From: an uncultured Candidatus Saccharibacteria bacterium
GTDB taxonomy: Bacteria; Patescibacteriota; Minisyncoccia; 2-02-FULL-40-12; GWA2-44-9
Assembly: GCA_964491455.1 (NCBI GenBank)
Contig: CAZBFM010000001.1
Location: forward strand, 149,388-213,387
Length of the DNA stretch: 64,000 nucleotides
Direction of reading: 5' to 3'
The notes beneath the pieces were generated by a model. The model had not been told where the DNA came from and did not search any database. It saw nothing but the letters and a program-made list of their open reading frames with translations. Positions 4,420-21,734 of this stretch are shown here, in pieces. The position numbers and the translations under genes are program-made. Position 1 is the first letter of the stretch. Each line of letters starts with the position of its first letter.

Positions 4420-5685
4420 ATGGATTCTCCTCACCAAAAACTAGGAAGGCTACTCCGCACAAAGCCTGAAGTTCTCGAAGCGATGGAGCGTAAGATGAAC
4501 CGTATTTCGGGGCAACAGGGCGTTTTGTTCGATATTCAGCGGCAGATCGAGATCACTGTTGAGCGAACGCTTGCTGGGTTGGGTTTGTCATCGAACGATT
4601 CAGCGGAAGATGTGAAGCGTGTGCTTGCGGAGCGAACGACACACCTCGACGGGCACCTCTATCGAATGCTCGGAAAGCCTGACTTATCAAATCCGACCGT
4701 GGCGTGCCAGCAACTCTGTTCCGTTATTTCGAAGGTGTTCACGCCGCCCAAGGGGCTTTTTATAAAACACGAGGTAGCGATGCGAATGCTAGAAAAATAT
4801 CCACCTAAGAATTTATTGGATCACTTTGGCTACTCGAGTATCGCTGAGCTTTTTGAGAAGGAAGGCTTTGCTTCGGTGATGGCGTCGTTGAGATTTTCTC
4901 AAACGCAGGAGTGGATGCACCAATTCTTCGATGTTGCATATGGAGAGCTCACGGCAAGTGATTTTGAGGAGCGTGATGTTGAGCATCTAATCTTGGATGA
5001 AAAATGGGTTCATGTAGCCGAAAAATATATGGCGAAGAAGTATCACAACGTATCTCACCTCAAAGAATTTGGCGTGATATTCATTGTGCCAATTGATATC
5101 ACAAAACCGGGAGCAACCCTACAAGTGTTCACGCTCATTCTGCACTATCTTCATGAGGTGCCGTTTTACGCTAGTCTATTTCGAAGATATCGCGACGAAA
5201 AGGATTTTGCCACGACATTCAAAAGCTTGCTTCGGGGGGATGTACCATCGGGAAGCGCGCCCGACCATGGCAAGATGACGTGGCGCATTGTGCAGCGCTA
5301 TCTTACCAAGGACAATCCGGATGACTTTCGACTATTCGAGCCTCATGTGAATCCGGAGGCCGATCACTGGTGGCGAGCGGAGGAAGATATCGGAAGGCTC
5401 TCGCGAATCCTTGGGACGCATACGGGGGAGCTTGATCTAGGCTGGTGGAGTGGCTTGGATTTTGTTGGCGCGGAAATAATGAGTGTTGCATCGGGGAGGC
5501 CAGAGCTCATCAGTTTTGATCTTATCGACCTTCTTATGACTGTCGTGCATGGGTCTAACTCGCAATTTTTGTATCATCAACAGGAATCACTCTGGAACAA
5601 GATCTTTGTCGAATACATGGGGCGAGAGCGCATGCATTCACTGATCGAAGAGAATTTGGTTACTGGCTTCATAGATCTGTCATGA
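4420..5685 (+). CDS. Hypothetical 421-aa protein with no recognisable family, embedded in the sugar-phosphate cluster
   Basis: Long ORF with balanced composition. It is tightly packed between the PfkB kinase and fba, and its TGA overlaps the fba ATG (ATGA). Confidence 0.55.
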   Translation: MDSPHQKLGRLLRTKPEVLEAMERKMNRISGQQGVLFDIQRQIEITVERTLAGLGLSSNDSAEDVKRVLAERTTHLDGHLYRMLGKPDLSNPTVACQQLCSVISKVFTPPKGLFIKHEVAMRMLEKYPPKNLLDHFGYSSIAELFEKEGFASVMASLRFSQTQEWMHQFFDVAYGELTASDFEERDVEHLILDEKWVHVAEKYMAKKYHNVSHLKEFGVIFIVPIDITKPGATLQVFTLILHYLHEVPFYASLFRRYRDEKDFATTFKSLLRGDVPSGSAPDHGKMTWRIVQRYLTKDNPDDFRLFEPHVNPEADHWWRAEEDIGRLSRILGTHTGELDLGWWSGLDFVGAEIMSVASGRPELISFDLIDLLMTVVHGSNSQFLYHQQESLWNKIFVEYMGRERMHSLIEENLVTGFIDLS

Positions 5686-6545
5686 AAGCACTTCAGGAAT
5701 ATTTTTTGCAAGCGAGACACGAGGGCTGGGCAATCGGCCACTTCAACTTTGCGACAGCAGATGTGTTGCGTGCAATTGTGGAAGGAGCGCAGATTGGCGG
5801 AGCGCCATGCGTGATGGTTGGTACGAGCCCGGGCGAGGCCGAATTTCTTGGCCTTGATACTGCGGTAGCTCTCGTGCGGGCAATCCGAGAAGCTTCGGGT
5901 TTTCCCGTGTTTCTGAATGCTGATCATTTTAAGTCGTTTGATGCCTGCAGAGCCGCTATTGATGCGGGGTACGATACGGTGCTGTTTGACGGCGCCTCGC
6001 TGCCCTATGACGTGAATGTGATCGAGACGCGTCGTTTGTGGCAGTATGCACAGTCAAAGCGAGGGAGCTATATGATAGAAGGCGAGCTCGGCGTAATGCG
6101 AGGTTCAAGTGAAATGCAAAAGAGCATCGCTATTAGCTCGAGTGATTTCACAAAGCCTGAGCAAGCTGAAGATTTTGTGCGTCGCACGGGAGTAGAGCGT
6201 CTAGCTATAGTCTTTGGAAATATTCATGGAATTGTAACGGATCAAAAAGAATCACTTGATCTCGATCACCTCCGCACGGTGCTGAATGCGGTCCCTGATG
6301 TAGCGATCGTGCTGCATGGAGCATCAGGGATTCCTGATGATATGATTGTGGACGCTATACGGGGCGGAATAACTAACGTGCATTTCAACACAGAGCTTCG
6401 CGTGGCGTATCAAAGAGGTATTGCGGAGACGATTGAAGCGCAACCCGACCAAACAACTCCTTACAAGTTACTCGCTCGCGCCGATCAGCACGTGCGCGAT
6501 CTCGTCGCGCAGAAGACTCGTGTTTTTATGCAAAGTAATTCGTAG
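5682..6545 (+). CDS. fba: Class II fructose/tagatose-bisphosphate aldolase
   Basis: GWAIGHFNFATADVLRAIVEGA, LNADHFKS, VFGNIHG, LHGASGIPDD (class II aldolase motifs). Confidence 0.85.
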   Translation: MKALQEYFLQARHEGWAIGHFNFATADVLRAIVEGAQIGGAPCVMVGTSPGEAEFLGLDTAVALVRAIREASGFPVFLNADHFKSFDACRAAIDAGYDTVLFDGASLPYDVNVIETRRLWQYAQSKRGSYMIEGELGVMRGSSEMQKSIAISSSDFTKPEQAEDFVRRTGVERLAIVFGNIHGIVTDQKESLDLDHLRTVLNAVPDVAIVLHGASGIPDDMIVDAIRGGITNVHFNTELRVAYQRGIAETIEAQPDQTTPYKLLARADQHVRDLVAQKTRVFMQSNS

Positions 6546-6673
6546 CTACTCCTGTAAAGTTACCCACAGTTTACACTGCTCTTAGGTCTGATATATTCGT
6601 TCGAACTCTTATGCGATCTAAGCCATCGTTGGCGTCGCATCGATGAGTCTGTATACAAATAAATCTATAATTC

Positions 6674-8419
6674 ATGAGCACGTCGTTTCGTGGTTGGAGA
6701 TCAGTCATAACGGGAACGGTGATAGTTATAACGATTGTCATGCCGTTTTTGCGTGGGATATCTAGCTCCGAAGCAGTTGTTGTTGCGACTACACTGTTTA
6801 CGGATGGTTTCGAATCAAATAATTTAAACAACTGGACATCAGTTGGTAGTGGATGGGGCGTATCTAGTAGTAATCCGCACACTGGCTCTCGAAGAGCGGG
6901 CATAAGCAGTGATACCGGGCAAAATCCGAATGAATTACGCAAGAATGTTTCGACCGTCGGTTACGATGGCATATCATTTGACTATTGGTATTTAGCGAAT
7001 GACTTAGAATCACAAGATTATACATTTGCTCAATGGTCATCCAATAGCGGTAATACATGGAATACCTTATTTTCCATTAATAGCACCGTTGATGACAATA
7101 CGTGGCATCACAACACGCATTCTCTTCCTGTTGATGCGGAGAATCTAGCTGCGTTTCGAATCCGATTCCTGGCAAACTTAAATAGCTCGAATGATTTCGT
7201 CAGAATTGATGACGTCACCGTTTCTGGATACGCGATTGCAACGCCAACGCCGACACCGAGTAATGAGCCAACTCCGACGCCGACACCGAGTGATGAGCCC
7301 ACCCCCACTCCTTCACCGTCCGCAACACCTCTGCCGGGATCGCGTATGGCGTATGGAACGCTTATCATAGAGAAGGTGATACGAGGTGGCACGAAGACCT
7401 TTACGGATTTTGCATTTGTCTTTGGAGGCGGAGAGAATGATCATTTTAATTCCGGAGGCAGAAATGAATACGTGCGTGCAGTTGGAACATACCTTGTTAG
7501 CGAGCCACCAACAGAGGGTTTCACCGCAACGTTTGGTGGAGATTGCGACGAACAAGGCCAAATAAGTGTCCTGGAAGGTCAAGCGGTCACGTGTGTGATT
7601 ACAAACACATATGCAACTTGGCAGGAGGGTGATCCAATCGCAACGCCTGCGCCAGCGTCACCAGTCGCCCCAAGCACGCCTCAATCGCAGGAGGAAGCAT
7701 CTTCCGAGCCAGTAGGGACATTGGTGGTCCAAAAGATCATCGTATTGTCATCCGCAAGCTTTACTGAATTTGGATTCACGGTAGCAAGTCAAACGCAACA
7801 ATTTGAGGCGGATGGGACGAATGCCGTAAGCCTGACTCCCGGTCAGTATACCGTTCAGGAGGTCGTTACTCAGGGATTTGAGGTGACATATTCCGGTTCT
7901 TGTGATGTAGGCGGCGTGGTGACTGTCGAACTGGGGCAGACTTCTACGTGTGTGATTACTAATACGTTAGCAGTCGGCGGTTTTAATCCAGGCGAAATCC
8001 AATCAACGCCGACTCCCAGTCCGACACCATTGGCTACACCAGCTCCACGTGCAGCTACAAGAGAGCGCGTTGATGCGGGGCGAGTGAGTGATGAGTCATC
8101 AGGAGTAACTCTCACACCCACGCCAGAAGCATCAAGATCTGATGAGCCATCGAATGATCAGGCAGCAGCAATCGGTACATTCTTGGGTCTTGATGTGTGC
8201 TCGAGTGCCGGACAGACGATGTGGTGGATTACTATGTTTGGACTCGCTATATTCTTGATGTGGTTTGGACGAACTCGTGGGTCGTATCCATTACTCATTC
8301 TTGCGTATTTTGTCATTTGGGCACTCTGGGCTGTTCAGATATGTTCATTTGGATTTGGCTGGATGCCGGCAATCATGGGAGGTGCAAGCTGGCTTGTCGC
8401 GGTGCCTCGTAAGTCGTAA
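6674..8419 (+). CDS. Secreted/cell-surface protein with an N-terminal beta-rich domain, PT-rich linkers, two tandem Cna-B/prealbumin-like domains and a C-terminal two-helix membrane anchor
   Basis: N-terminal hydrophobic signal/TM. PTPTPSNEPTPTPTPSDEPTPTPSPS linkers, also seen as a DNA direct repeat at about 7240..7320. Two paralogous ~90-aa domains end in ...TCVITNT. The C-terminus MWWITMFGLAIFLMWF...AIMGGASWLVAV is hydrophobic. Confidence 0.75.
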   Translation: MSTSFRGWRSVITGTVIVITIVMPFLRGISSSEAVVVATTLFTDGFESNNLNNWTSVGSGWGVSSSNPHTGSRRAGISSDTGQNPNELRKNVSTVGYDGISFDYWYLANDLESQDYTFAQWSSNSGNTWNTLFSINSTVDDNTWHHNTHSLPVDAENLAAFRIRFLANLNSSNDFVRIDDVTVSGYAIATPTPTPSNEPTPTPTPSDEPTPTPSPSATPLPGSRMAYGTLIIEKVIRGGTKTFTDFAFVFGGGENDHFNSGGRNEYVRAVGTYLVSEPPTEGFTATFGGDCDEQGQISVLEGQAVTCVITNTYATWQEGDPIATPAPASPVAPSTPQSQEEASSEPVGTLVVQKIIVLSSASFTEFGFTVASQTQQFEADGTNAVSLTPGQYTVQEVVTQGFEVTYSGSCDVGGVVTVELGQTSTCVITNTLAVGGFNPGEIQSTPTPSPTPLATPAPRAATRERVDAGRVSDESSGVTLTPTPEASRSDEPSNDQAAAIGTFLGLDVCSSAGQTMWWITMFGLAIFLMWFGRTRGSYPLLILAYFVIWALWAVQICSFGFGWMPAIMGGASWLVAVPRKS

Positions 8420-8428
8420 TCCTAAAAA

Positions 8429-8458
8429 AGACAACCCCCATTACGGGGGTTGTCTTTT
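8429..8458 (+). terminator. Rho-independent terminator
   Basis: agacaaccccc-atta-gggggttgtct followed by TTT. Confidence 0.7.
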
Positions 8459-9315: not shown

Positions 9316-9825
9316 CTATTGTAGGAGCTTTCCCCATGCAGCTCGTTGGCGAGGGGAGAGATGCTGCGCTGACGATATCGCGTCTTGGAGATTGCTTACT
9401 GGAAACGATAGCACATCATTGGGCTCGAGATTGCGACTGCCAATTTCGTTTGCGAGAGCTGAGGCAGCCGCAACGCGCTCAATGCCGTCTAGCTTGATAA
9501 TGGGGTCGCTTGATGCGCAGTACAGGTCAATCGCACGCGACGACAAGGAATAGACCCCGTCACCCGGTAGGGCAAGCACATCGATGGAAGCGGCAACGGG
9601 TGTCTCGCGAGGAGTCTCATACGAGTCAGTCCGTGCGGGGAGCCGGTCCCAAAGAATTGAAGCTGTAAGCGCAATAATAGCAATCAGAATAATTGTTGTT
9701 ATCAACGTGTTGCTATGTGAGCGAAGCCACGTATGCAACTGGCCTCCCCATCCTGGACGAGGCGTGAATAGAGGACCGGGAAGTGAAGCGCCGGTGGGGT
9801 CCTGGCGTGGATGGAGTGAGTTCAT
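9316..9825 (-). CDS. Hypothetical single-pass membrane protein
   Basis: ORF with an internal TM ([19 protein letters not shown]). It overlaps the RF1-like gene stop by 4 nt, which suggests an operon. Confidence 0.45.
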
Positions 9826-10922: not shown

Positions 10923-11343
10923 AGTCTGTACAGTATAGCAGGTCTTCGGCGGTATGTCTAGGACGTGATGCGAGTGCATTGACGCTAAGCCGTCCCGATA
11001 GTATAGTCGTTGAGAGGTACTAAGTATGAAAGAGGGAAATCCGGTTGGGAGTGAGAGCCCGTATTCGCCATGGAAAGAGTTCGTCTTCATTCTGTCGATT
11101 CTTAGTTGCGTGGCTCTGTACGTGAAATGCACAGGGTAGTGGTCTTCCACGCCCCGATTTGTTCGGGGCTTTTCTTTTGGGCGTAGATGTGGTATTCTCA
11201 TCGGGCTTTCAATTGCCCTCGACAGGCGTTGGAAACGTATAAAACTCAATGATTTGTTCGATAGTGTGGTGTGTGGGGCCCCTTGGGACCCAGAGACGCG
11301 CCTACCCCCGCGAGGGAAGCACAGCATCGAGCACGAATTATTC

Positions 11344-12036
11344 ATGGCAGATTCAGAATTGATAGCGTATGAGGAGATGTTGCAGGCAGGTATGCACTTC
11401 GGTCGTAAGCGTACTGTGTTTAACCCAAAAATGGGCAAGTACGTGTATTCCGTTCGCGATGGCATCTGCTTGATTGATTTGCTCAAGACTCAGGAAGCAC
11501 TCGGCGTTTCCATCGCTGCTTTGAGCGAGGTACTTCAGGGCGGCGGCTTGGCGCTGTTTGTGGCGCCTACCAAGCAGGCACAGGAGACAATTCGAGAGCT
11601 TGCTGATGCAACCAATATGCCGTACGTGCTCGACCGCTGGATTGGTGGTACGCTCACGAATTTCAAGAACATTAATAGCCGCGTGAAGCGTCTTATCCAG
11701 CTCGAAGAAGAGAAGGCAGCTGGCGTATGGGAGAAGTTCACCAAAAAGGAGCAGCTCGATCTTGATCGTGAGATGGCGGAAATGAAGCGTAATTTTGAAG
11801 GACTCAAGAAGCTCACACGCATGCCGGATGTTGTATTTGTCGCATCCGTGAAAGAAGGAGCACTCCCAATTCATGAGGCAAAGAAGATGGGCGTGAAAAT
11901 CATCGCAATTGCCAATACAGACGGAAATCCTGCCGGTCTCTTGAATGTCATTCCTGCCAATGATCGTTCGAAGAAGTCAGTTGATTTGATTATTCGTGCT
12001 ATCACAAAGAACGTTGACGTTCAGCCAAAGGCGTAA
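11344..12036 (+). CDS. rpsB: Ribosomal protein S2
   Basis: [19 protein letters not shown]...[12 protein letters not shown]...FVAPTKQAQ...[10 protein letters not shown]. Confidence 0.9.
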
Positions 12037-12069
12037 GCGAGAGAGTGTAGTATACTAATTGATATAATC

Positions 12070-12522
12070 ATGAGTGACGTTGCAATCATCAAGGAGCTTC
12101 GAGACGAGACCGGACTTTCGTTCGACAAGATAAAGTCCGCGTTAACTGAAGCGGGAGGCGACAAGGCGAAAGCACTTGAAGTGCTCAAGAGTCAGGCCGG
12201 TGCTGCTGCGGCAAAGAAATCTGATCGCGCGGTGAAAGACGGAGCGATCGGTTCGTATATTCATAGCACCGGAAAGGTTGGTGCAATGGTGAGCATCGGA
12301 TGCGAAACTGATTTCGTTGCTCGCAATGACGACTTCAAGGCGCTTGCGAAGGATTTGGCGATGCATGCGAGCGCAATGCGACCTGAGTCTGCGGAGGAGA
12401 TGCTCGCACAGCAGTTCGTCAAAGAGCCAGAGATAACCGTTCAGGATGTTATCAACCGTGCGATTGCCAAACTTGGCGAGAATATTCAGCTCGTCGGCGT
12501 TTCGGTGCTCGTAATCGGATAA
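12070..12522 (+). CDS. tsf: Elongation factor Ts, short (150 aa) form
   Basis: N-terminal UBA-like VAIIKELRDETGLSFDKIKSALTEAGGDKAKALEVLK. Sits immediately downstream of rpsB. Confidence 0.85.
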   Translation: MSDVAIIKELRDETGLSFDKIKSALTEAGGDKAKALEVLKSQAGAAAAKKSDRAVKDGAIGSYIHSTGKVGAMVSIGCETDFVARNDDFKALAKDLAMHASAMRPESAEEMLAQQFVKEPEITVQDVINRAIAKLGENIQLVGVSVLVIG

Positions 12523-12525
12523 TCT

Positions 12526-13164
12526 GTGTTTCTTATTCTTCCGTTATTGATTGCGTTGGTCTCACTACTCGCTATGGCGTTTGTGGTGTATCGCAAGATG
12601 CCATATTTGCGCAAGCTTGCTCCCGAGTCCCACCCGGCTGGGCAAACAATCGTGCATGAATACGCACCTGAGGTTGTAGATTGGGCGGTGAGTATTCCGT
12701 GGAGGCAGTACATGCGCAATGCGCTCGTTGAAATTGAGAAATTGCTTCGCAAGGGGCGACTGTTGATGTCTGCAATCGATCGTGCATCCGATACGGTCAT
12801 TCGCAAAGTTCGACGTGTCCACATTGAAACAGCCAAACAGCACGAGGCCATCGTGGCGCATCGCCAAGAGGAGGAAGCCCGACTCGCGGAAGAACCAGAC
12901 GAAATCGATCTGGATGATCCGGACCAGCTTCGCCAAGAAGAGCAGCGGCTGATTGTTGCCATTGCACAGAATCCCAAAGACGTAGAGCAGATTATCCGTC
13001 TTGCGCGAGTGTATATGCGATTACAGGTGTACGCAGACGCTATCGAAGCATTCGAGGCCGCAGCGAAGCTTCTCCCTGACGAGGCGAGTATCCAGAAGCG
13101 ACTCAAGCGTGCTCGTGAGTTGCTACAGCAGCAGTTAAGCGCTCAGTCACCCGAGAGTCTTTGA
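12526..13164 (+). CDS. Hypothetical membrane-anchored protein with a helical/TPR-like C-terminus
   Basis: N-terminal TM (FLILPLLIALVSLLAMAFVVY) and a charged helical remainder. The antisense ORF 12486..13106 is rejected. Confidence 0.5.
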   Translation: MFLILPLLIALVSLLAMAFVVYRKMPYLRKLAPESHPAGQTIVHEYAPEVVDWAVSIPWRQYMRNALVEIEKLLRKGRLLMSAIDRASDTVIRKVRRVHIETAKQHEAIVAHRQEEEARLAEEPDEIDLDDPDQLRQEEQRLIVAIAQNPKDVEQIIRLARVYMRLQVYADAIEAFEAAAKLLPDEASIQKRLKRARELLQQQLSAQSPESL

Positions 13165-13188
13165 TATTTCTCGTTCTTCAGGTATAAT
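13161..13188 (+). promoter_or_regulatory. Sigma70-like promoter upstream of the tRNA-Thr/tRNA-Tyr cluster
   Basis: TTGATA (13161..13166), 16-nt spacer, TATAAT (13183..13188), about 35 nt upstream of the tRNA-Thr 5' end. Confidence 0.45.
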
Positions 13189-13223
13189 CGCGTAGCTATC
13201 CGTGTGATAGCGTTTAGCTTCAC

Positions 13224-13295
13224 GCCGGCGTAGCTCAGTGGTAGAGCAACTGTTTTGTAAACAGTAGGTCGTCAGTTCAATCCTGACCGCCGGCT
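13224..13295 (+). tRNA. tRNA-Thr (anticodon UGU)
   Basis: Cloverleaf with acceptor gccggcg/cgccggc, D-arm gctcagtggtagagc, anticodon loop ttTGTaa, T-arm gtcagttcaatcctgac. Confidence 0.8.
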
Positions 13296-13312
13296 CAGGG
13301 ATTCACAAAACG

Positions 13313-13395
13313 GGGGTGTGGTGGAGTGGTCAATCACAACAGACTGTAAATCTGTCGGCCTTAGGCCTACGTAGGTTCGAATCCTACCGCCCCCA
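13313..13395 (+). tRNA. tRNA-Tyr (anticodon GUA) with long variable arm
   Basis: Anticodon arm cagactGTAaatctg, long variable arm cggccttaggcc, T-arm gtaggttcgaatcctac. Confidence 0.8.
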
Positions 13396-13417
13396 CATGT
13401 TCACGAAGAGAACATCG

Positions 13418-13654
13418 ATGTACTACGTCTATATCTTGCGTTGTAGAGGAGGGAGGCTCTACACGGGTATCGCGAAAGATGTCGAGTCGAGGTTTCTGCA
13501 GCATCAGAGAGGCAAGGGCGCTCGCTTCACGCGTGCGCATCCACCCGAGAGTATTGTCTATTGCGAGCCCGTAGCAACGCGATCCGATGCGCTGAAGCGT
13601 GAATATGCGGTCAAACAGATGAGTCATGAGCAGAAGTTACAGCTTGTTTCATAG
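13418..13654 (+). CDS. GIY-YIG domain nuclease (UPF0213/YhbQ-like), small
   Basis: MYYVYILRCRGGRLYTGIAKDVESRFLQHQRGKGARFT is a GIY-YIG core. Track ORF 13316 reads through tRNA-Tyr, so the real start is the ATG at 13418 (or 13396). Confidence 0.75.
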   Translation: MYYVYILRCRGGRLYTGIAKDVESRFLQHQRGKGARFTRAHPPESIVYCEPVATRSDALKREYAVKQMSHEQKLQLVS

Positions 13655-13656
13655 AT

Positions 13657-13731
13657 GCCGTTGTGGCTCAGTGGTAGAGCAGCTTCTTGGTAAGAAGCAG
13701 GTCGTGAGTTCGATTCTCACCAACGGCTCCA
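13657..13731 (+). tRNA. tRNA-Thr (anticodon GGU), CCA encoded
   Basis: Acceptor gccgttg/caacggc, anticodon loop ttGGTaa, T-arm gtgagttcgattctcac, 3' tcca. Confidence 0.8.
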
Positions 13732-13734
13732 GTA

Positions 13735-13763
13735 TTGTCAGAATCGTAAAGTCGTGCTAGAGT
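13735..13763 (+). promoter_or_regulatory. Sigma70-like promoter for rpmG
   Basis: TTGTCA (13735..13740), 17 nt, TAGAGT (13758..13763), about 20 nt upstream of the rpmG ATG. Confidence 0.4.
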
Positions 13764-13783
13764 GCACAAGCTAAATCAACACC

Positions 13784-13948
13784 ATGTCCCAAGACAATCT
13801 TCTTCGATTGAAATGCCAAAAGTGCAAGAGCGCAAACTACTACACCTCAAAGAACAAAAAGAAGGTGGAGCGCAAGCTGGAATATAAGAAATTTTGCAAA
13901 ATGTGCCGGAAGACAACTCCCCACAAAGAAGCAAAAATGACAGGCTAA
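13784..13948 (+). CDS. rpmG: Ribosomal protein L33 (54 aa; below the ORF-track size cutoff)
   Basis: Manual translation MSQDNLLRLKCQKCKSANYYTSKNKKKVERKLEYKKFCKMCRKTTPHKEAKMTG*, a zinc-ribbon L33. Confidence 0.8.
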   Translation: MSQDNLLRLKCQKCKSANYYTSKNKKKVERKLEYKKFCKMCRKTTPHKEAKMTG

Positions 13949-13953
13949 TCACA

Positions 13954-13976
13954 AAATCCCCGAAAGGGGATTTTTG
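13954..13976 (+). terminator. Rho-independent terminator after rpmG
   Basis: aaatcccc-gaaa-ggggattt followed by TT. Confidence 0.7.
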
Positions 13977-13978
13977 GT

Positions 13979-14009
13979 AAAAAAAGACCGCTGGGCGAGC
14001 CATGCGGTC
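13979..14009 (-). terminator. Rho-independent terminator for the minus-strand gene ending at 14018
   Basis: gaccgc-tgggcgagccat-gcggtc with a T-run on the minus strand (A-run at 13979..13985 on plus). Confidence 0.55.
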
Positions 14010-14017
14010 TCGAATTG

Positions 14018-14557
14018 CTACTTTCTATTTGCGATGGCAACGAACTCGGGGTCATAGCCCATGGATGCGTCAATTTGTCCGTAGGTGCGTCTTCCTTGAA
14101 TTCCGCGAGCTCCGAAGGAGGAGGTAGCGAAGGGTCCACATCCTCGATTCGGATAGAAGCCGCAACTCCGTTCCGCCTCGATATACTGCTCCTGTGTCGC
14201 CTCCTGCCATGGAAGACCGCAGACGGAGAGCCAAAAGCGCTCACGCGGTGCATCAGACTTCCTCCCGGGCGTGAGACTATGTAGCGCTTTGAGTAACCAC
14301 ACGGGGTCGCTTTGAATATTCTTGCGCCAGTGAAAGTAGCGGCGCACGAGGGTGGCTACGGTGTCGCCTTCATTGATAGGGCATGGCGTGTCATTGAACC
14401 AGAACCACGCGGGGTAATTGCGTAGGTTATCCAGAGCATCACGTGCCGCCAGGTCAACCGTACCAGTTCCTTGCATGAAGTGGTAATGCCAGAGTCCAGC
14501 CGCGTCTTGCTGTGATACGCCGACTATCGATTCGCGTACTTTCATGTTACTTGCCAT
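14018..14557 (-). CDS. Hypothetical protein (179 aa), Trp/Cys-containing, no family recognised
   Basis: The ATG for MASNMK is preceded by AAGGAG at 7-nt spacing on the minus strand. The track's 14602 alternative start lacks an RBS. Confidence 0.55.
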   Translation of the reverse strand: MASNMKVRESIVGVSQQDAAGLWHYHFMQGTGTVDLAARDALDNLRNYPAWFWFNDTPCPINEGDTVATLVRRYFHWRKNIQSDPVWLLKALHSLTPGRKSDAPRERFWLSVCGLPWQEATQEQYIEAERSCGFYPNRGCGPFATSSFGARGIQGRRTYGQIDASMGYDPEFVAIANRK

Positions 14558-14723
14558 GCGATCTCCTTTGGTTGTCGAAATACTACTGAAATGATGGCAC
14601 AAATAATAACAAATGTCAAAGTATTAGAATGAACTTTAATACAATGACAAGATTGTGCAACTTGATTCGTGTTGTAGGATATATACTCGGTCGATTCGTA
14701 TAACTAACAAAAAGGAAACCACC

Positions 14724-21567: not shown

Positions 21568-21734
21568 TGCTTTACAGTTGAAAGGGAACCTGATATAGTA
21601 TACCTATAACCGTAGACAGCAGGTGGGGTTCAACCCCGTAATTCCTGCCGAGGTGGATGCCTTTTTATAAGGCGCACTCTGGTCGATCTGCGGTGAATAC
21701 GCAGTTTTTTATTATAAAATTGCGAAAACCAACT
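21568..21734 (+). promoter_or_regulatory. Putative rplJ leader/autoregulatory region
   Basis: A 167-nt untranslated region upstream of rplJ containing hairpin gcagg-tggggttcaaccccgtaattc-ctgc. Assignment is by position only. Confidence 0.25.

Follow-up and report, generated by a model that had tools for sequence, protein, structure and literature searches.

A probable adhesin-type surface protein of a Paceibacterota bacterium, with a conserved three-helix anchor, at a putative cassette-exchange locus

The adhesins of Gram-positive bacteria known as microbial surface components recognizing adhesive matrix molecules (MSCRAMM), or Cna-type adhesins, are built to the same plan as the pilins of these organisms: a signal peptide is followed by a distal head, by tandem prealbumin-like/CnaB immunoglobulin-like (Ig) domains and by a proline-rich segment that spans the wall before the anchor. 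Our analysis of a 64,000-nucleotide stretch of contig CAZBFM010000001.1 (assembly GCA_964491455.1; hereafter the window, whose coordinates we use unless another locus is named) suggests that a Paceibacterota bacterium has a protein of this kind. The 581-residue product of the open reading frame (ORF) at 6674..8419 on the forward (+) strand is probably a membrane-anchored, modular adhesin-type surface protein, and the locus encoding it appears to be one at which cassettes are exchanged. A surface-exposed binding role for this protein is well supported. Its architecture is ordinary and MSCRAMM- or pilin-like; what is new is the anchor module, and a feature of interest is the apparent exchange of cassettes, with the anchor preserved, at a fixed locus flanked by housekeeping genes.

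The tiny genomes of Patescibacteria encode a wealth of surface proteins. To our knowledge, almost none of the molecules that mediate contact are known for the large groundwater groups of Parcubacteria/Paceibacterota. In cultivated Saccharibacteria, predicted adhesins are essential for host-dependent life (PMC11665869). The locus described here provides a concrete candidate for such a contact molecule, in the form of a single-copy gene that is fixed beside rplY, with an anchor that is kept and outer modules that are swapped among close relatives: pilin-type stalks that carry a carbohydrate-binding module (CBM)-like head, a cohesin paired with a dockerin protein, or giant proteins with TSP and DUF642 domains. 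If the head binds a glycan of a host or substrate, partner specificity could be read straight from metagenomes, with the cassette as its marker.

The gene itself is as the original prediction had it. The ATG is the first codon past the in-frame upstream stop, the coordinates given above include the stop codon, and an identical protein (P0001) is recorded both on a 652,729-bp NCBI contig and in a Logan assembly. A one-residue variant is present in a second sample, and the best non-identical homologue, P0002, shares 49% identity with the protein (E 4e-135). Profiles of the anchor, the head and the stalk each match this gene alone within the window, where it is therefore single-copy.

C-terminal sorting signals (LPXTG with sortase, PEP-CTERM with exosortase, GlyGly-CTERM with rhombosortase, MYXO-CTERM, and the NCBIfam model NF058595) are portable modules that occur on many unrelated ectodomains, hence 'choice of anchor', and run from a short motif through a transmembrane (TM) helix to a basic cluster. 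The C-terminal module of our protein (residues 498-581; 8165..8416, +) is likewise portable and begins in the same order, but it has three helices and a conserved pair of cysteines, and no NCBIfam or Pfam model covers it, nor does any sorting-signal model reach its threshold there. It consists of AAIG...C509, helix 1, an RTRG loop, helix 2, C557, helix 3 and a PRKS tail, the helices lying at residues 511-535, 538-554 and 564-576 in the AlphaFold2 (AF2) model. Three hydropathy segments are present in nearly all of the 19 family members, in agreement with the model, and the two-helix C-terminus of the original prediction must give way to one of three. The invariant positions are A498, G501, C509, W518, R535, W552, C557, W563 and P565. 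The loop past helix 1 is basic (RTRG here, RRRG or RGxxxxK in others), as is the tail (PRKS, RGRK); the second cysteine sits in a neutral loop that joins helices 2 and 3. This three-helix module with its cysteine pair would add a new entry to the known list of C-terminal anchors.

The anchor is a rare, portable module with a narrow distribution. We defined its family by position at the extreme C-terminus, A-x-x-G, a Cys before helix 1, a W in helix 1, an R-G loop, a W and a Cys past helix 2, W-x-P at helix 3 and a tail that is basic. When six anchors were combined into a profile and scored against 1.84 billion (1.84e9) representative proteins at E<=1e-3, 20 proteins were returned, of which 19 are convincing clusters, all with the module at the extreme C-terminus and ranging from 119 to 1,505 residues; our protein has all the features of the definition and matches the profile with an E-value of 1.1e-24, together with 18 other real clusters. 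The twentieth, P0041, was rejected as a repetitive, unrelated protein, and a word-indexed homology search with the anchor alone gave no candidates. The ectodomains carried by the module are diverse: a cohesin in P0029, TSP1 and SpaA_4 in P0030, five TSP3 repeats with TSP1 and DUF642 in P0032, DUF642 with fn3 and Golvesin_C in P0037, a choice-of-anchor-C-like domain in P0040, prealbumin pairs in P0035, P0036 and P0038, and hardly anything besides linker in P0034. Anchor similarity does not track ectodomain similarity, as is clear from P0001 and P0029, whose anchors are 92% identical and whose ectodomains are unrelated (Smith-Waterman score 36), and from P0002 and P0030, with anchors 74% identical and largely unrelated ectodomains.

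Conserved flanks around a non-homologous segment are a feature of capsule and O-antigen loci and of the Thermococcales, in which a hypervariable Ig-domain module forms a variable surface-protein locus that is exchanged between such flanks (PMC8416519). In the present case the flanks are fba and rplY. The anchor-bearing gene lies immediately upstream of rplY at every locus for which the context was recovered, that is, at seven loci (window/L001, L030/P0007, L031/P0004, L032/P0005, L035/P0029, L036 and L037/P0032). Beyond rplY, on the other strand, come a hypothetical gene of 162-171 codons, prfB and rpmE, and fba lies upstream in most cases. Two distant relatives with other tails also precede rplY: in L014, fba is followed by a gene for the head domain with cadherin-like repeats and a single TM helix, and in L008 the protein has two prealbumin domains and a short tail. 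At L032, a sortase gene and a gene for a CAP-domain protein (161-1908 of that locus) are found directly upstream of the anchor-bearing gene.

The closest comparison is with L035, the corresponding locus of the related metagenome-assembled genome (MAG) GCA_017992005.1 (Candidatus Paceibacterota bacterium Gw_Eff_bin_126). The ribosomal protein S2 of the window is 100% identical to that of this genome, and 56-59% identical to S2 of Yanofskybacteria. Judged by these nearest genomes, the source of the window belongs to the Paceibacterota and is a small-genomed Patescibacterium of the Parcubacteria type. By blastn, the two sequences are 95.1% identical over window positions 4532-6539 and 91.9% identical from 8165 on, and nothing matches 6540-8164. 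This segment (6540..8164), which fba borders on its left side and the anchor on its right, has no homology to GCA_017992005.1 and constitutes the replaceable cassette. In bins of 80 nt, identity is 95-99% up to about 6300, 76-84% over 6300-6539, the last 240 nt of fba, about 45% (the random level) over 6540-8159 and 91% from 8160; the codon of A498, with which the anchor begins, starts at position 8165. The counterpart of the cassette in L035 is 7,058 bp long and encodes a 1,971-residue Fn3/PKD/Big protein, a 145-residue dockerin protein and a 283-residue cohesin protein on the same anchor. To judge from these alignments, the variation at the locus is whole-ectodomain cassette replacement on a conserved anchor and not repeat slippage.

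The sharp breakpoints, together with the comparison with L035, point to fba and the anchor-coding end as conserved arms between which the ectodomain cassette is exchanged, and homologous recombination in these arms would be the mechanism. Another sequencing run yielded a second version of the window sequence, L002, with 11 single-nucleotide polymorphisms (SNPs) in 4,617 bp (99.76% identity), two of them inside the gene; nine of the 11 cluster at 6158-6488, in the 3' part of fba. Both this cluster and the raised divergence from L035 at the 3' end of fba fit recombination tracts that reach into this gene, and suggest that such tracts extend into it. The breakpoints are sharp, with divergence climbing toward the left one, which the locus shares with the exchanged loci cited above; it differs from them in that the right-hand arm lies inside the gene itself, the anchor-coding end, so that exchange would create new fusion proteins on a fixed anchor.

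The cassette of GCA_017992005.1 recalls the anchoring scaffoldins of cellulosomes, in that a cohesin on a surface anchor has a dockerin partner encoded at the same locus: Pfam identifies Dockerin_1 with 29.1 bits and Cohesin with 30.9 bits, and the dockerin gene is immediately upstream of the cohesin gene. The likeness has limits: cohesin and dockerin are both missing from the protein of the window itself, the anchor belongs neither to the SLH domains nor to the sortase signals, and no glycoside hydrolases are seen at L035. Viewed by itself, the region 2099-9322 of L035 (= 25-4185 of L004) resembles a minimal cohesin-dockerin surface display set, in which the 145-residue dockerin protein is secreted and has a poly-Gly tract. 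Our literature search found no paper on this anchor, or on cohesin-dockerin pairs carried by it, in Patescibacteria.

Intramolecular isopeptide bonds are described in the S. pyogenes pilin Spy0128 (Lys179-Asn303) and in SpaA (Lys363-Asn482/Glu446) (PMC11231552). Our protein has two CnaB/SpaA-type domains, D1 (residues 227-314; 7352..7615, +; K234, E277, N311; C291, C307) and D2 (residues 347-433; 7712..7972, +; K354, E396, N430; C410, C426), the latter with a sub-threshold match to SpaA_2 at residues 369-428. They are paralogues (independent E-value of 1.6e-17 by phmmer) and both end in TCVITNT, as the original prediction had noticed for two domains of about 90 residues; the motif that it gave for both, L.PGQYTV.E, is found in D2, and D1 has VGTYLVSE in its place. 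Each of them is nearer to the matching domain of the orthologues than to its sister, and the duplication is therefore old. AF2 models them as two beta-sandwiches with a predicted local distance difference test score (pLDDT) of 84-94, in the seven-to-nine-stranded prealbumin-like/CnaB fold, and Foldseek matches them to PitA, PitB, the TIE protein, GBS52, S. pyogenes T-antigens, SpaA, SpaC and BcpA, with E-values down to 2e-8. At the sequence level, SpaA_2 (PF19403) matches 11 of the 19 related domain copies at E<0.01 (best 1.3e-10) and reaches its gathering threshold of 25 bits in P0002 (25.1 bits) and P0007 (26.6 bits); the domain profile also aligns weakly to the start of the C-domain of the S. 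pyogenes pilin (T-antigen). The Cna-B/prealbumin-like nature that had been proposed for these domains is supported by these matches.

Across the 19 domain copies, which are 28-52% identical, invariance is confined to six columns: Lys, Gly, Glu, Cys, Cys and Asn. In the AF2 models the first strand holds the Lys and the last strand the Asn, and the Glu comes directly past the fifth strand, in a Y-x-V-x-E motif, so that Lys, Asn and the catalytic Glu of CnaB domains are conserved in the expected strands. As modelled and aligned, the arrangement of Lys, Glu and Asn in D1 and D2 is that of CnaB-type intramolecular isopeptide bonds, and each domain probably forms a Glu-catalysed Lys-Asn isopeptide bond and, in addition, a disulfide. 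We know of no isopeptide-stabilised stalks in this phylum before now, although no literature search was aimed at the point, and the predicted self-crosslinking Lys-Glu-Asn domains would extend such stalks to it. The triad is among the features that the protein shares with the CnaB stalks of MSCRAMM and pilins. It departs from them in its head, a CBM/MAM-like jelly-roll and not a DEv-IgG N2N3 or vWA domain, in having neither LPXTG nor a pilin motif and a three-helix membrane module as anchor, in the additional conserved, predicted disulfide pair of each domain, in its patescibacterial host and in Pfam scores that remain below threshold.

The head (residues 35-186; 6776..7231, +) is a beta-jelly-roll of CBM/MAM/Reelin-B-like type. 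AF2, given an alignment of 10 sequences, predicts an all-beta fold with a pLDDT of 92.7 and a predicted template-modelling score (pTM) of 0.88, in line with the beta-rich N-terminal module that the sequence had suggested. In the Protein Data Bank (PDB), Foldseek finds CBM22, CBM61, CBM16, the cleaved-adhesin domain of Lys-gingipain (Kgp), Reelin subrepeat B, the Eph ligand-binding domain and MAM, with E-values down to 7e-8 and TM-scores of 0.56-0.73 for single-domain targets. The head thus has the jelly-roll fold of carbohydrate-binding modules, and 'lectin-like', as it had been called, is apt for the fold; it does not extend to membership of a CBM family, since Pfam gives no CBM match for our protein and family thresholds are not reached. 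Its likeness to the galactose-binding-like jelly-rolls of CBM61, CBM16, CBM22, CBM4_9, Reelin subrepeat B and MAM appears in sequence through relatives, which have sub-threshold Pfam matches to Reelin_subrepeat-B, MAM and CBM_4_9 (the last with 19-22 bits in P0006 and P0012, against a threshold of 25.9). Sequence identity to these domains is only 11-21%, and the head sits on a membrane-anchored stalk rather than on an enzyme. The same domain is found on proteins with other anchors, namely a single TM helix (P0006, P0012, L014) or a peptidoglycan-binding domain (P0008), and only four further proteins were gained when the head-domain alignment was used for a profile search.

Since the nearest folds are true carbohydrate-binding modules of glycoside hydrolases, the protein might be one of substrate capture or an envelope-structural protein and not a host adhesin, its head binding environmental polysaccharide for nutrients or biofilm and its locus acting as a general display site. 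We consider this unlikely, although two further observations would suit it: the allelic L035 carries a cohesin on the same anchor beside a dockerin protein, which looks like a display scaffold and not a specific adhesin, and the L030 orthologue adjoins glycoside-hydrolase-like genes. Within the window, however, there is no catalytic domain in the protein or in its neighbours, and genuine adhesin and receptor domains, namely the gingipain adhesin, MAM and the Eph ligand-binding domain, belong to the same fold class. This alternative moreover differs from an adhesin-type protein in the identity of the ligand only.

An adhesin-type protein would work as follows. The signal peptide (residues 1-34; 6674..6775, +) would direct export through Sec. 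It has an n-region with R6 and R9, a hydrophobic h-region of 24 residues (8-31) and a plausible signal-peptidase site, and is the N-terminal signal or TM segment that had been predicted; cleavage is predicted at SEA34/V (SEA/VVV), with which the AXA sites of the orthologues align. The conserved shape ATVxMP[YF]A..VP.A.A was considered as a special class of signal and rejected, orthology being the simpler explanation. After export, the three-helix module would stay in the cytoplasmic membrane with its N-terminus out and its C-terminus in. Because of the positive-inside rule, the K/R-rich loop and tail (RTRG, PRKS) would be cytoplasmic and the ectodomain outside, with C509 and C557 both facing outward, where they could pair. 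Signal peptide and charge pattern together would place the bulk of the protein outside the cytoplasm, which agrees with the surface location first proposed. The stalk of 64 residues (434-497; 7973..8164, +) would cross the wall layer; it opens with GGFNP (residues 435-439, nt 7976-7990) and continues as a low-complexity segment of P, T, S and acidic residues, with pLDDT <50. The two CnaB/SpaA-type domains would be stiff spacers, each with its probable Lys-Asn bond and disulfide, the Pro/Thr-rich (PT) linkers would give reach, and the distal jelly-roll would bind a ligand, in all likelihood another cell's glycan or a polymer. The extended reach could be some tens of nanometres, as estimated from about 136 linker residues and three 4-nm domains. 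The anchor-coding end, fba and rplY would form a conserved frame inside which the ectodomain cassette is exchanged by recombination, and it would be for this reason that related lineages show different binding modules at the same locus. By analogy with Saccharibacteria, attachment to a host or partner is plausible; binding of an environmental polymer is equally consistent with the fold.

Several points weigh against the proposal of an adhesin-type protein at a cassette-exchange locus. In our protein, no Pfam family of the ectodomain reaches its gathering threshold: SpaA_2 scores 17.9 bits (E 0.0049), D1 alone does not match it, the 23.1 bits required by SpaA (PF17802) are not attained either, and Reelin_subrepeat-B scores 14.5 against 27 bits in the head. 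CBM-like jelly-rolls have many non-adhesive roles, and no ligand-site residues can be assigned in this one. The anchor is modelled with moderate confidence only (pLDDT 54-72), and its third hydrophobic segment is weak in our protein. Episymbiosis is an assumption made from genome size and phylum. Lastly, the evidence for cassette replacement comes from one close genome pair and from looser comparisons, and a MAG misassembly at a variable locus keeps some probability; on this last point, two independent assemblies agree on the window sequence and the alternative cassette is on an NCBI contig recorded in 2 samples.

A more far-reaching idea is that the signal peptide, the GGFNP stalk and the AAIG-Cys three-helix tail together make up an undescribed, lineage-specific display or sorting system of Paceibacterota, with the tail recognised by a dedicated factor for processing or assembly, the fba-rplY interval serving as a single 'expression slot' and cassette exchange setting partner or host specificity. 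In our estimation this is quite improbable. VGGFNP is invariant in the orthologue alignment, and GGFNP occurs in 12 of the 20 anchor-family proteins, 60-140 residues ahead of the anchor. Taken alone, GGFNP is a short linear motif with no known role.

In another reading, the C-terminal module would be a sorting signal, from which a dedicated enzyme (sortase-like, rhomboid-like, or a lipid or wall transferase) that reads GGFNP or AAIG...C removes the helices, so as to couple the ectodomain to wall or lipid. Known sorting signals terminate at the basic tail. Here, two more conserved helices, with an invariant W, C and W-x-P, follow the basic cluster, which makes this reading very improbable even though the module opens, as tripartite signals do, with a conserved A-x-I/A-G ... 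C ahead of a TM helix and basic cluster. GGFNP is conserved as a stand-alone element, even inside plain PT linkers without a preceding Ig domain (P0030, P0032), which would suit recognition by an enzyme, but it is separated from the first helix by over 60 residues, a distance well beyond sortase geometry. A sortase gene does occur two genes upstream at the orthologous locus L032; no sortase homologue is present in the 64-kb window, which holds only a minor part of the genome. We found no LPXTG-like motif (LP.T[GAS], [LIV]P.[TS]G or L[AS].TG) in our protein, in agreement with the suggestion that a membrane anchor stands in place of an LPXTG sortase signal, and NPx[TS]x matches just once, as NPHTG at residue 67, which belongs to the head and is distant from the C-terminus. 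In favour of this reading, the signal-peptide shape is conserved over many members as well. As to NF058595, the 'lipo-invert putative C-terminal anchoring domain', whose threshold the family does not reach, the anchor of P0005 matches it weakly, with 15.6 bits against a cut-off of 37, our protein does not match it, and a second member of the anchor alignment matched at E<=10 and was absent at E<=1. We rejected this match, along with MYXO-CTERM, SLATT and other weak matches to the anchor, as they lie far below cut-offs and reflect hydrophobic stretches only.

The original prediction had also pointed to near-perfect DNA direct repeats at about 7240..7320, encoding the PT linkers, and had proposed that they vary by slippage. 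Linker 1 (residues 187-226; 7232..7351, +; 68% P+T+S) does contain a tandem repeat, which consists of one 30-nt unit present twice (7239-7268 and 7269-7298; 7239..7298, +), 27 of 30 positions being identical (Tandem Repeats Finder score 101); it encodes TPTPTPSNEP / TPTPTPSDEP and is not a multi-copy array. Linker 2 (residues 315-346; 7616..7711, +) is rich in P, S, A and E and predicted to be disordered (pLDDT <50 at model residues 109-123). A third apparent repeat (7589-7615 versus 7946-7972) is accounted for by the shared TCVITNT ends of the paralogous domains. That the repeats are a contingency locus, varying protein length by slipped-strand mispairing, is highly improbable, for although a 30-nt unit has been duplicated in tandem and linker length ranges among distant homologues from none (P0002) to more than 100 residues (P0006), there are only two copies, 90% identical, neither L001, identical to the window over 13,259 bp, nor L002 has an indel in the PT region or any change in the repeat, and the variation seen at the locus replaces the whole cassette. 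Population variation was judged from these two sequences, of which L002 is the one other strain. A family search of GTDB species genomes and JGI metagenome contigs found no further close strains, and a single-protein scan of metagenome contigs gave two distant head-domain relatives only.

The composition of the linkers also explains several matches that we rejected as homology: a PDB sequence search with the whole protein returned low-complexity PT matches only (e.g. Internalin K), and the NCBIfam matches InlK and SslE are the same artefact. The minus-strand ORFs overlapping the gene are unsupported and mirror the PT codons; 7108..7392, for example, reads GVGVG in translation. PT-rich linkers are typical targets of PMT-family enzymes in Actinobacteria. 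A gene for a PMT-family protein O-mannosyltransferase is located some 9 kb upstream of our gene, immediately before the window begins (L001 1-823, L031 58-1314), and given this conserved gene nearby, the PT linkers may be O-glycosylated.

The signals around the gene are simple. A candidate sigma-70-like promoter, TTTACA-16-TATATT with a TG (6570..6597, +), lies 77 nt 5' of the ATG and is a weak, consensus-based call (10/12). Directly past the stop codon there is a terminator-type hairpin (8426..8458, +) with a perfect 14-bp stem, a 5-nt loop and a T-run in and past the 3' arm (-28.3 kcal/mol, z -6.9), which was not among the elements returned by the pattern scan; on the basis of this hairpin, the gene appears to be its own transcription unit. 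Rfam identified no RNA element at the adhesin locus. GC content is about 50%. Elsewhere in the window, Rfam finds an L10 leader (21592-21719, +; 56.6 bits) and there are six tRNAs, all of them ordinary housekeeping elements unrelated to the adhesin.

Among the neighbouring genes, a 421-residue ORF (4420-5685, +) has no Pfam match, and its stop codon overlaps the start of fba. The order pfkB - 421-residue ORF - fba is kept in L014, L031 and L036, and the ORF may be an uncharacterised partner of a sugar-phosphate gene cluster. On the other side, a 169-residue ORF (9316-9825, -) with one predicted TM helix and no Pfam match adjoins prfB; its conservation is seen in the sequence for L004 and L008, and in the place and length of the ORF (162-171 residues) for L030, L032 and L036. 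Further along, L035 has an ORF of 908 residues (11989-14715) between rpmE and rpsB that resembles the major vault protein (MVP), with matches to MVP_shoulder (75.9 bits) and Vault_3 (40.7 bits). It is absent from the window, where the corresponding junction lies at about 10978-10984, and an MVP-like gene is unusual in a Patescibacterium with so small a genome.

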